DNA from: an uncultured virus (IMG/VR IMGVR_UViG_2651869651_000001)
Taxonomy: Duplodnaviria; Heunggongvirae; Uroviricota; Caudoviricetes
Strand: one strand, 5' to 3'
IMG/VR virus record: IMGVR_UViG_2651869651_000001
DNA length: 64,000 nt
Under the pieces are notes generated by a model, which did no database searches, was not told the DNA's origin, and saw nothing but the letters and a program-made list of their open reading frames with translations. Position 1 is the first letter of the stretch, and each line of letters starts with the position of its first letter. Shown piece after piece: positions 8,865 to 10,886 of the stretch. The position numbers and the translations under genes were made by a program.

Positions 8865-10249
8865 GCTTCGACCTCCAGCATTTCCGCGCCGATCTCACCG
8901 GGCACGAACTCCTGGATCAGCGCGTCCCACCCCACTTCCCGCCACTTCACCTTGATCCCCTGGAGCTCCCCTTCGCTCACGAGGTCGACTCGCTCGATCA
9001 TCAGGTTGGCGATGCGGTGCCGCTCGGCGGGGAAGAGCCGCTCCCACACGTCATCGAGCCGGCCCATCGCCATCACCGTTGATGCTTCATCGACCTGGGC
9101 ACCGTTGCGCTGGATGTGCTGCACCACCGCGGCAACCGCCTCCGGGCTGGTCAGCACGGTGCGAATCTGCGCGACCACGGCCCCCTCGATCTCCGGCGCC
9201 GGCAGCCGCTCGTAGCGTTTGCCCGGCGCCCCGAAGCGGCTCTCCGACTTCGACACGTAGTAGCGGTACTGCCGGCCGTTCTTGCGCGAGTAGGTCGGGT
9301 ACATCCGCTCGCCGGACGGGGTATGCAACAAGCCCCGCAGCAACGCGTCGGTGCGTGACAGTACCTTGGTCTCCGTCGACCGGGCGTGACTGTCCTTGAC
9401 CAGTACGGCATGGACCCGCTGCCACAACTCGGCATCGATGACGGCCGGATGGCTGCCCGGATACCAGCTTCCCTTGTGCGACAGTTCACCCAGGTAGATA
9501 CGGTTGCGCAGCAGCTTGTGCAGGTACTTCTTGTCGATGTCGGCGCCGTAACGCACACGGCCATCTTGCGTGGTCCACGCCTTGGTCGTAATGCCTTCGG
9601 TGGTCAGGCGCGCAGCGATCTGCGTGGGCGACCCGATGGTTAGCATCTCCTCGAAGATGCGACGCACCACAGCAGCCTCGGCCTCGTTGATGACCAATTG
9701 GCGGTCGCGGACGTCATAGCCCAGAGGCGGCACGCCGCCCATCCACAGCCCTTTGCGCTTGGCCGCCGCGATCTTGTCGCGGATCCGCTCGCCGGTGACC
9801 TCGCGCTCGAACTGCGCGAAGGACAGCAGCACGTTCAGCATCAGCCTCCCCATCGACGTCGTGGTGTTGAACTGCTGGGTCACCGACACGAACGACACGT
9901 CGTGGCGCTCGAACACCTCGACCATCTTGGAGAAGTCGGCCAGGCTGCGGGTCAGGCGGTCGATCTTGTAGACGACCACGATGTCGATCTGGCCGCGCTC
10001 GATGTCGGCCAGTAGGCGCCGCAGGCCGGGTCGGTCAGTGTTGCCGCCGGAGAACCCTGGGTCGTCATAGTCGTCGGCCACCGAGACCCAGCCTTCGGAG
10101 CGCTGGCTGGCAATATAGGCGTGACCTGCCTCCTTCTGCGCATCGATGGAGTTGAATTCCTGGTCCAGCCGCTCGTCGGTGGAGACGCGGCAGTACACCG
10201 CGCAGCGTTTGCGCGGCTTGGCGGAGGCGATCTGTGCGGCGCCGGTCAT
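8861..10249 (-). CDS. Large serine recombinase (integrase)
   Basis: AVYCRVST (catalytic Ser), FSGGNTDRPGL, YKIDRLTRS, FAQFERE, recombinase domain LRNRIYLG. Confidence 0.95.
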   Translation of the reverse strand: MTGAAQIASAKPRKRCAVYCRVSTDERLDQEFNSIDAQKEAGHAYIASQRSEGWVSVADDYDDPGFSGGNTDRPGLRRLLADIERGQIDIVVVYKIDRLTRSLADFSKMVEVFERHDVSFVSVTQQFNTTTSMGRLMLNVLLSFAQFEREVTGERIRDKIAAAKRKGLWMGGVPPLGYDVRDRQLVINEAEAAVVRRIFEEMLTIGSPTQIAARLTTEGITTKAWTTQDGRVRYGADIDKKYLHKLLRNRIYLGELSHKGSWYPGSHPAVIDAELWQRVHAVLVKDSHARSTETKVLSRTDALLRGLLHTPSGERMYPTYSRKNGRQYRYYVSKSESRFGAPGKRYERLPAPEIEGAVVAQIRTVLTSPEAVAAVVQHIQRNGAQVDEASTVMAMGRLDDVWERLFPAERHRIANLMIERVDLVSEGELQGIKVKWREVGWDALIQEFVPGEIGAEMLEVEA

Positions 10250-10695
10250 CGTGCGCCTCCCTTGGTCAGGCCAAAGAACAGCGGGCCAGACCAGTGCGTG
10301 CCGGTAATGTGCCGCGCCAGGGCCGTCAGGCTCTTGAAGGGCTTGCCCTCGTATTCGAAACCACCCTCGGCGGTGACGACGGCCTTGTGCTCGCGCCCGC
10401 CCCATTCGCGCGAAATGACCGTGCCAGGGACAAAGTGCAGTTCGCGCGAGGGCGCCCGCTTGGGAATCTTCGAGTGCGAGGCACCGATACGCTCCAGACG
10501 TTCGCGCGTGACAGGCGACAACCCGCCGAAGGCTTCCTCCTGCAGCTTGTAGGCGATGCGCGATTCGATGAAATCCCGGTTCGGCTTGGCCGGGCGGTAG
10601 TCGAAGTACCGGTCCCACAGTTTCCAGAGCTCGGGCATGGGGGCGCGGCCCAGTTCGGCGATGCGGGCGGCGACGGAGGTTGGGTTGGCGTTCAT
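10246..10695 (-). CDS. DUF2924-type protein
   Basis: IAYKLQEEAFGGL..PGTVISREWGG..FKSLTALARHITGTHWSGPLFFGL; coupled to the recombinase. Confidence 0.85.
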   Translation of the reverse strand: MNANPTSVAARIAELGRAPMPELWKLWDRYFDYRPAKPNRDFIESRIAYKLQEEAFGGLSPVTRERLERIGASHSKIPKRAPSRELHFVPGTVISREWGGREHKAVVTAEGGFEYEGKPFKSLTALARHITGTHWSGPLFFGLTKGGAR

Positions 10696-10886
10696 CACAA
10701 CGTCTCTCGTTGATAGGGAGTTGCATGTACGCGCTGGTCGGGCACAAAGCCAAGTCCAACCGCGCTCTCTGCTGTGCGTGGTGTGGCAAGTGTGCGGACA
10801 ATGGCCGAAGCCAGGATGGTCGTGATCTCGGTGGCGCGCTCGCCGGCCGAGAGTTGGGAAGGGCAGGGTAGTTCGATGGACTTCAT
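10695..10886 (-). CDS. Small hypothetical protein overlapping motif copy 6
   Basis: MKSIELPCPSQLSAGERATEITTILASAIVR..; TGATG coupling to DUF2924. Confidence 0.5.
   Translation of the reverse strand: MKSIELPCPSQLSAGERATEITTILASAIVRTLATPRTAESAVGLGFVPDQRVHATPYQRETL
10725..10755 (-). promoter_or_regulatory. Cassette motif copy 6, upstream of the recombinase operon
   Basis: + strand ATGTACGCGCTGGTCGGGCACAAAGCCAAGT, 30 bp before the DUF2924 ATG. Confidence 0.75.

Follow-up and report, generated by a model that had tools for sequence, protein, structure and literature searches.

The sequence analysed is a 64,000-nucleotide (nt) record of an uncultured Caudoviricetes virus (IMG/VR IMGVR_UViG_2651869651_000001), referred to below as the window, and its serine recombinase operon contains one copy of a 30-nt bipartite motif that recurs elsewhere in the same record. 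The operon is encoded on the minus strand. It comprises a small conserved open reading frame (ORF) of 63 codons (10695-10886), homologous to Gp5 of Acidithiobacillus phage AcaML1; a DUF2924 gene of 149 amino acids (aa) (10246-10695; Pfam PF11149, E 5.5e-47; phrog_11806); a large serine recombinase of 462 aa (8861-10249; Resolvase 1.1e-42, Recombinase 9.7e-14, and Zn_ribbon_recom 6.6e-5, the last being below the family cut-off); and two paralogous accessory genes. Accessory gene 1 (8490-8864, 124 aa) matches phrog_14161 'recombinase' at 1.3e-40, with AcaML1 Gp2 being annotated as 'site specific recombinase small subunit', and accessory gene 2 (8020-8493, 157 aa) matches the same family at 3.3e-36. 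The TGA stop of the small ORF overlaps the DUF2924 ATG (TGATG), and ATGA overlaps join DUF2924 to the recombinase, the recombinase to accessory gene 1 and accessory gene 1 to accessory gene 2, in agreement with the translational coupling of the last four genes described in an earlier note on this DNA.

The motif copy within this operon, copy 6 (CTTGGCTTTGTGCCCGACCAGCGCGTACAT), occupies minus-strand positions 10725-10754, leaving 29 nt between its end and the ATG of DUF2924 (10695-10693). The earlier note had placed it correctly, with the distance given as 30 bp. Copy 6 is not intergenic; the final 20 codons of the small ORF contain it, together with the DUF2924 ribosome-binding site. We take the small ORF to be a real gene because, in an alignment with AcaML1, the stretch coding for EITTILAxAIVRTL differs nearly only at synonymous positions (as read off the alignment). 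Its C-terminal 57 residues gave no Pfam or PHROG match.

On the gene-sense strand the motif reads GCTTGGCTT-N7-GAACAGCGCGTTCAT. In copy 6 this corresponds to box 1, CTTGGCTT, followed by a less conserved stretch of 10 nt, TGTGCCCGAC, and then box 2, CAGCGCGTACAT. The window was scanned with the pattern CTTGGCTT-N10-CAGCRCGKWMMT, tolerating up to two mismatches, with 100 dinucleotide shuffles as the control. Eleven sites were found, every one with no mismatches and on the minus strand, against an expectation of 0.02 sites in the shuffles (largest value 1). A weight matrix scored these sites at 32.8-50.9 bits and the remainder of the window below 8 bits; as the matrix was built from the same 11 sites, copy 6 included, the pattern count is the cleaner test. 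Five of the copies form array A (4121-6114), five form array B (28554-30664), and copy 6 stands apart from both, 17.8-19.9 kb from array B, which bears out the distance of about 18 kb in the earlier note. The recombinase gene itself lies 4.6 kb and 18 kb from the two arrays.

Conservation of the motif was then assessed across relatives of AcaML1, a clade of temperate phages of Beta- and Gammaproteobacteria and Acidithiobacillia. The window shares 75.7% DNA identity with AcaML1 over 94% of positions 8000-11000, along with the gene order Gp1-Gp5, and AcaML1 carries the motif four times, with three copies in a terminase-adjacent array and the fourth preceding its DUF2924 gene (reversed control, 0). 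Far from being absent upstream of orthologous operons, the motif was present at 80/80 IMG/VR DUF2924 loci (68-99% protein identity), and the gap between motif and DUF2924 ATG was 29 nt in all 82 sequences (these 80, the window and AcaML1). In species-representative genomes the strict pattern was matched at 72/80 DUF2924 loci. The other eight comprised two with one letter of box 1 changed, four that appeared degenerate by eye, one (Nitrosomonas) without box 1 and one that was unlike the motif. By record titles the host genera belong to Burkholderiales, Rhodocyclales, Nitrosomonadales, Xanthomonadales, Chromatiales and others.

The arrays are conserved as well as the operon copy. Fifteen viral records held 77 sites, compared with one for the reversed pattern, and in each record a single DUF2924 copy was accompanied by 2-6 array copies on its strand. 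Across the phage records examined, the number of copies per record is 3-9. Some records carry one extra copy on the opposite strand at the far end, after a lysozyme gene and before a conserved 98-aa gene. Five whole genomes (4-5.7 Mb) had 3-10 copies each, with none for the reversed control. The copies cluster with a DUF2924-type copy in the three genomes that have few of them (G018, G019 and G021) and are distributed over several contigs in the other two (G017 and G020). The genes that follow array copies form a recurring set of small accessory cassettes, namely DUF6900, DUF3489, phrog_8020 and five or six unnamed small families; for DUF3489 genes the motif was found 33-38 nt before the ATG in 77/80 loci.

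We surveyed the distance from motif to start codon at 78 sites drawn from 16 related records as well as from the window and AcaML1. At every one of them the motif is oriented towards a start codon downstream, with a gap of 34-36 nt in 60 and of 28-46 nt in 74; the remaining four, copy 6 included, are failures of the simple start finder. A logo of 77 distinct sites showed an invariant G-CTTGGCTT, then seven variable positions, then GAA (82% conserved), CAGCGCGTT (at least 95%), C/A, A/C and an invariant T. Beyond the boxes, position 36 is a pyrimidine in 76/77 sites and position 37 a purine in 73/77. A pattern that fixes the boxes chose the survey and logo sites, so the invariance of the boxes is partly built in; the flanks were left unfixed.

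Since copy 6 lies within a coding sequence, we compared nucleotide and peptide constraint through mean pairwise identity at each codon position, using the 72 distinct sequences of the 82. Identities at positions 1/2/3 were 0.926/0.989/0.895 for the motif and 0.887/0.865/0.868 for the leader that follows it, compared with 0.802/0.857/0.635 for DUF2924 codons 2-50 and 0.683/0.728/0.537 for the 30 small-ORF codons before the motif (somewhat lowered by indels). Array copies are intergenic, 25-157 nt past the stop of the preceding gene, and the frame of the motif relative to the next ATG falls in all three phases (34/20/20 sites). Because third positions are constrained, array copies are intergenic and every phase is used, the sequence comparisons indicate that within the clade the element is read as nucleic acid. 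The earlier note had considered that conservation might extend only to a peptide, LGFxxxQRVH, with free third codon positions; at copy 6 the third positions are conserved, at 0.895 compared with 0.635 in DUF2924.

The peptide is nevertheless real at copy 6, where LGFxxxQRVH forms the tail of an old small-ORF family. The conservation pattern therefore suggests that copy 6 is doubly constrained, as the tail of an old small protein and as a nucleotide element. That the motif as a whole is only a conserved peptide, either LGFxxxQRVH in the gene sense or MNALFxxxAKR on the opposite strand, we consider very improbable. The sense frame at copy 6 is a true small-ORF tail with a similar tail in distant relatives, one AcaML1 array copy falls in the tail of the annotated gene Gp29 in the same frame, and the opposite strand reads ATG AAC GCG CTG TTC at most copies. 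However, for array copies this explanation is contradicted by their intergenic position and by the spread of their frames, and at copy 6 by the conserved third positions. The opposite-strand ATG also needs box 2 to end in CAT, yet position 28 is A rather than C in 15/77 sites and position 29 is C rather than A in 12/77 (the TTACT type), and the residues after AKR are unconserved.

More distant DUF2924 lineages were examined in the same way. PF11149 occurs in 63/301 sampled genomes of the phylum, and the 30 best distant loci lacked the AcaML1-type motif, with 3-10 mismatches at its 20 specified positions. Most of these 30 loci have a counterpart at the same place and with the same 8+10+12 layout, CTGGATAA-N10-CAATGSCCTYAT. 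The loci also have a homologous small ORF (…MTxxERLxExAxILAxG…LDKSxNQCPYGRK…), which ends -2 to +5 nt from the DUF2924 start in 27/30 loci, 24 of them as ATGA. Five distant genomes contained the variant counterpart 16 times (up to two mismatches), 15 of them adjoining a DUF2924 gene, with no arrays. Some codons are oddly fixed in the distant loci, for example GAT and CCT in G+C-rich genomes. The 'regulon' is thus a feature of one clade, because the distant lineages keep a single-copy counterpart without arrays; from these comparisons it appears that only the AcaML1-like clade multiplied the element to the heads of other genes. The coupled small-ORF family (…MTxxERLxExAxILAxG…RL…) appears to be a third, previously undescribed partner in DUF2924-serine recombinase modules.

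From the copy number, orientation, spacing and conservation of the motif, all of which are observed, we infer promoter activity, a start site, a recognition factor and co-regulation. The reading to which we give about even chances is that the motif is a promoter private to the AcaML1-like phage clade, non-canonical and possibly with an overlapping operator, and shared by the accessory cassettes and the integration operon. Box 1, CTTGGCTT, would act as the -35 element, and the end of box 2, GTTCAT, 17 bp further on, as the -10 element. TTGGCT and GTTCAT are separated by 17 bp in all 11 window copies, within the sigma-70 spacer range of 16-18 bp, and TTGGCT, which is invariant in the 77 sites chosen by a pattern that fixes box 1, matches TTGACA at 4/6 positions including TTG. 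Transcription would start about 7 nt past GTTCAT, which for copy 6 would be window position 10718 plus or minus 2, so that the ribosome-binding site would fall in a leader of about 22-30 nt. The purine at position 37 falls 7 nt past the -10-like hexamer, at the expected start site.

In the promoter reading, one copy would head each small accessory cassette (DUF3489, DUF6900, phrog_8020 and others), so that each forms its own unit. Copy 6 would provide an internal entry from which DUF2924, the recombinase and the two accessory genes are transcribed without the small ORF, while transcripts from further upstream would give all five proteins by coupled translation. G+C-rich hairpins lie between the stop of a cassette gene and the next motif, and an upstream arm pairs with box 1 (at least 7/8 Watson-Crick) in 15/77 sites, compared with 0.93 in shuffles, or in 31/77 when G-U pairs are allowed. 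The end of one unit thus overlaps the head of the next, since it is the upstream arm that pairs with box 1. Box 1 itself appears to be read as sequence, because first-of-array and DUF2924 copies keep it without a pairing arm. As box 2 lacks the adenine at -11, recognition would probably involve a phage-encoded factor, for which the DUF3489 protein and DUF2924 are candidates; the extreme invariance of the motif and its confinement to phage likewise indicate a dedicated factor. The earlier note had proposed that integration and the cassettes form one regulon. A shared cis-element, in the sense of one co-controlled set, is well supported as sequence; co-expression, or the switching-on immediately after infection that the note gave as an example, would be a further and conjectural step.

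Several observations weigh against a promoter. GTTCAT, GTTACT and GTACAT all carry T at position 2, where the sigma-70 -10 element has a near-universal A (-11), and a sigma-70 consensus scan of positions 3800-11200 gave 0 promoter-like sites. The start-site argument fails for copy 6, as DUF2924-type copies, copy 6 too, have TCC or CCC at positions 36-38 in place of the pyrimidine-purine step. The hairpins have no U-run on the gene-sense strand and may be poor terminators, and in a weak test of stem extension into the spacer, box-1 hairpins formed 1.39 pairs with their own spacer compared with 0.92 with swapped spacers. Part of the conservation of copy 6 is at the protein level, because it also codes for the small-ORF tail, and the tail peptide L-D/G-x-x-x-x-Q-x-P/V-Y/H is similar across lineages though the nucleotides differ. 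The distant counterpart is single-copy and without arrays, and the box-fixing choice of sites described above must be set on the same side. The sequencing runs found to contain the stretch held only assembled contigs with small shares of it, and the four runs compared with the window gave contigs of related phages; such contigs are unable to show RNA starts or levels. One contig from an RNA library (9806-10761) stops 7 nt upstream of the first base of the motif (10754) and was not counted as evidence. Readings as sigma-54 (GG-N10-GC), sigma-32 or extracytoplasmic function-type (GAAC-N16-CGTC) promoters were rejected by eye against their consensus sequences, because the required positions are variable or about 80% conserved and are absent in DUF2924-type copies.

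The motif may instead be an operator or roadblock, at which a phage regulator bound to both boxes would repress the cassettes and the recombinase operon or stop read-through into them, with the promoter elsewhere or overlapping. DUF2924, the small Gp5-like protein, the DUF3489 protein and the prophage repressor are candidate regulators. We regard this as possible though on the unlikely side, and it is compatible with a promoter because both functions can share a site. The spacing of the two asymmetric invariant boxes, about two helical turns, would suit a regulator carrying a pair of DNA-binding domains. In its structural model the DUF3489 protein consists of two winged-helix domains connected by a flexible linker, and the DUF2924 model shows two small domains that weakly resemble DNA-binding folds (Z 4-6). 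The invariance is also far tighter than in ordinary host promoters, and the adjacency of 15/16 distant 8+10+12 counterparts to a DUF2924 gene is what would be expected if a protein of the operon reads the site. On the other hand, all of the fold matches are weak (E 0.001 or worse, Z below 8), and the fixed start-codon distance, the pyrimidine-purine step and the upstream hairpins are predicted by a promoter and unneeded by a pure roadblock. The binding site for an operon protein that the earlier note offered as an alternative gains a little from the distant counterpart without arrays and from the DNA-binding-fold likeness of DUF2924. A further alternative, that the motif acts in RNA as a leader or processing signal, for example as a site for a nuclease or for a translational regulator that binds RNA, and at times forms a hairpin with the sequence preceding it, seems unlikely to us. 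The constant distance upstream of ribosome-binding sites, the pairing of box 1 with an upstream arm in 15/77 to 31/77 sites, the C/A-rich and G-poor leaders, and the certain transcription of copy 6 whenever the small ORF is transcribed would all suit such an element. Box 1, however, is equally invariant where it has no partner, the GAAC/GTTC mini-palindrome of box 2 is lost in the GCAC and GACC variants, and 35 nt from the AUG is too distant to occlude the ribosome-binding site. There was no Rfam match in the whole window at the gathering score or in positions 3800-11200 at E up to 1, and RNAalifold gave no consensus structure for the 15 hairpin-bearing sites, for which the MAFFT alignment was out of register.

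Another possibility considered was that the motif is a recombination site, either a target of the serine recombinase (for cassette excision or capture, or as attP) or a 'linker' kept by homologous exchange of cassettes. Cassette content and order do vary among array A, array B, a related record (G001) and other relatives, and each joint carries the motif. Related contigs lose their likeness to the window at motif edges (loose ends at 5767-5769, 6083 and 6116). The motif thus marks boundaries of mosaicism, and a stretch of 30 identical bases could sustain homologous exchange. Large serine integrase sites have imperfect dyad symmetry around a central dinucleotide, and a phage has one such site, located where it joins the host DNA. 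By contrast, sequence and logo show no dyad symmetry around a central dinucleotide in the motif, and its two boxes are unrelated to each other. With 3-9 direct copies per phage, site-specific recombination between copies would delete genes; copy 6 lies about 3 kb from a probable prophage end near 7660; and exchange alone leaves the fixed start-codon distance unexplained. We therefore consider a recombination function quite improbable, and the recombination site suggested in the earlier note is not supported, given the lack of symmetry, the 3-9 copies nearly all on the operon strand, and the position about 3 kb inside the prophage end. A large serine integrase attachment site in particular was rejected on the unrelated boxes, the copy number per record and the position of copy 6 inside the left end. 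An integron cassette array, in which an imperfect inverted-repeat attC site comes after each promoterless cassette and the tyrosine integrase IntI adjoins attI and Pc, was also rejected, as the motif precedes genes at a fixed distance from the ribosome-binding site and the recombinase is serine-type and distant from the arrays.

Candidate reading factors were assessed through structural models. The model of the DUF3489 protein (predicted local distance difference test score, pLDDT, 74.7) has two winged-helix domains and a disordered linker, and the folds that it matches best, all of them weakly, are those of tandem winged-helix proteins. The AlphaFold2 model of DUF2924 (pLDDT 75.4) has a four-helix N-terminal part and a small beta-rich C-terminal part, with weak fold likeness to SAP/LEM-type, MPND and CcrM C-terminal DNA-binding domains. 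A search by sequence of DUF2924, the DUF3489 protein and accessory protein 1 against solved structures gave nothing below E 0.01. With fold matches this weak we do not claim membership of any of these families for DUF2924 or DUF3489, and the models suggest that either protein could read the bipartite site. A protein of the operon itself is favoured as the reader because of the single-copy counterpart in the distant operons. The earlier note had grouped DUF3489 with the operon proteins, which is incorrect; DUF3489 is an array cassette gene (5219-5719, 29717-30232 and 29093-29599). A scan of 44 window ORFs revealed neither a phage RNA polymerase nor a sigma factor.

A more speculative extension of the promoter reading, which we hold to be doubtful, is that DUF3489 (always under the motif) or DUF2924 is a bipartite specificity factor steering host RNA polymerase to a private class of promoters without the -10 adenine. 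Copy 6 would then work like lambda pI in separating integrase expression with and without the small protein, the small ORF would encode a directionality or control factor of the widespread DUF2924-serine recombinase module, and the cassettes would have captured the control element of the integrase operon.

Lambda pI is the CII-activated int promoter, located inside the xis coding sequence. The resemblance to copy 6 would lie in the entry of integrase transcription inside a small upstream gene, giving integrase with or without the small protein, and in an activator-dependent signal common to other promoters of the same phage. In contrast to lambda, which has a tyrosine integrase, the genes here encode a large serine recombinase with DUF2924 and two accessory proteins, the motif is unlike the CII box TTGC-N6-TTGC, the small ORF is not known as a directionality factor and the promoter is putative. 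Phage-specific repeated promoters, such as those of T7-type RNA polymerases or those for phage-encoded sigma or appropriation factors (for example the T4 MotA boxes), are similar in that, within a single phage, a long, near-invariant repeat precedes many genes, in each case oriented towards the gene served, and host genes lack it. Unlike them, the motif is found in a temperate phage with lambda-like head genes, and it heads accessory cassettes and the integration operon rather than the main early or late operons. The stoperators of mycobacteriophage L5 are asymmetric multicopy sites in short intergenic gaps, all in one orientation and bound by the immunity repressor. The motif shares with them the multiple asymmetric copies in one orientation relative to transcription, but L5 sites are 13 bp long, number about 24-30, occur in both arms and have no fixed start distance, whereas the motif is 30 nt, bipartite, present in 3-9 copies per record and about 35 nt before start codons. 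The cassettes themselves resemble morons, being small genes between and opposite core operons with their own putative promoter and, in many cases, a hairpin after them. They differ in that cassette families are conserved clade-wide whereas morons are sporadic, and in that one identical signal serves all cassettes and is common to the recombinase operon.

Promoters that are repeated and private to a phage are thus already a known kind, as are promoters located within the gene preceding int. What is new here is a bipartite, non-sigma-70-like sequence class, its double use as a conserved small-ORF tail, and the link between the DUF2924-serine recombinase operon and conserved accessory cassettes across a wide host range. 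No description of the motif was found in the entries and passages covered of papers naming AcaML1, DUF2924 or DUF3489; those naming DUF2924 all concern Wolbachia. In the passages covered of one paper that names AcaML1 (PMC5567305), the subject is another phage. DUF2924-serine recombinase operons are common (the 63/301 genomes above), yet DUF2924 and the small coupled ORF are without a known role, and a clade-wide signal offers a handle on the timing of prophage integration and on accessory-gene function. Judged by its sequence conservation, the motif is also a clean example of one stretch serving as both a protein tail and a regulatory DNA element, and, if its factor is found, a compact, portable, phage-specific expression signal would be possible. 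A YopJ-family effector-like gene in the window means that the control circuit bears on lysogenic conversion.

All array copies lie on the minus strand. In array A, the first copy (6085-6114), which lies beside a divergent small terminase gene, is 34 nt before a DUF6900 gene (5811-6050). The copy at 5755-5784 is 35 nt before a DUF3489 gene (5219-5719), and that at 5002-5031 is 36 nt before a gene of 62 aa (4777-4965); in both, box 1 forms the 3' arm of a hairpin. Two variants ending in TTACT follow, each at 36 nt, one (4589-4618) before a phrog_8020 gene (4187-4552) and the other (4121-4150), with a G+C-rich hairpin immediately upstream, before a gene of 86 aa (3839-4099). T-rich tails were observed after the box-1 hairpins on the strand opposite to the cassettes (5773-5805 and 5038-5053, plus strand), and these hairpins may stop antisense transcription arriving from the methylase genes.

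In array B, the first copy (30635-30664) is 22 nt from the small terminase ATG and 36 nt before a gene of 86 aa (30338-30599). Copies at 30268-30297 and 29632-29661 each lie 35 nt before a DUF3489 gene, the second of these genes being diverged (29717-30232 and 29093-29599), and the copy at 29008-29037 is 42 nt before a gene of 115 aa (28615-28962). The last copy (28554-28583) has the most diverged box 2, CAGCACGGTCAT, and lacks a start codon at the usual spacing. The long ORF that comes next (27441-28331, minus strand, 296 aa) begins about 220 nt downstream of it, gave no Pfam match and failed the third-position G+C filter; it may be a second moron driven from this motif copy.

Outside the window, the extra copy at the far end of some relatives was seen in G001 (L006 1500-1860), L182, L189 and L191. 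There it lies on the late-gene strand, directly behind the lysozyme gene and 28-30 nt before a gene of 96-99 aa (MSKSMRFK…), close to the right prophage end, a point beyond the end of the window. In the AcaML1 record, 'terminase small subunit gpNu1' is annotated on the plus strand at 21968-22273. The minus strand of the same region contains a motif copy followed 34 nt later by an unannotated DUF6900-like ORF (MMRKTANK…), and the gpNu1 annotation may be on the wrong strand.

The full prophage is ordered as recombinase operon, YopJ-family gene, replication genes, methylases, array B, terminase, and head and tail genes. Bases 1-7535 of the window represent a partial second copy of the same prophage type, with two ParB-methylase genes, array A, the small terminase and a large terminase truncated after about 279 codons. 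This partial copy is 63-100% identical in blocks to 24327-32055, and the likeness stops exactly at 7535/7536, a point with which the loose ends of relatives' contigs coincide in three runs. An ORF at 7575-7982 (plus strand) matches only the C-terminal half of the profile of restriction endonuclease XhoI (109-191 of 191); an XhoI-family gene may have been the integration target, or its 3' end may be carried by the prophage. Related contigs diverge from the window at about 7660, and the left end of the full prophage is probably near this position, about 3 kb from copy 6.

The YopJ-family serine/threonine acetyltransferase gene (12087-13256, minus strand, 389 aa, Pfam E 1.3e-41) is without a motif copy. 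It sits between the small ORF and a homologue of AcaML1 Gp6 (13377-15614), and it resembles an effector-type moron that has entered immediately upstream of the recombinase operon, because the Gp6 and Gp5 genes are about 100 nt apart in AcaML1. An exact repeat (47660-51995 and 59665-64000, spaced by 12,005 bases) begins in the tape-measure gene and reaches the end of the window; either the tail region is duplicated in tandem or the repeat is an artefact of assembly. An inverted repeat at 22375-22474, with arms of 48 nt that are 73% complementary and separated by 4 nt, occupies the gap between the primase/D5-type and RuvC-like genes.

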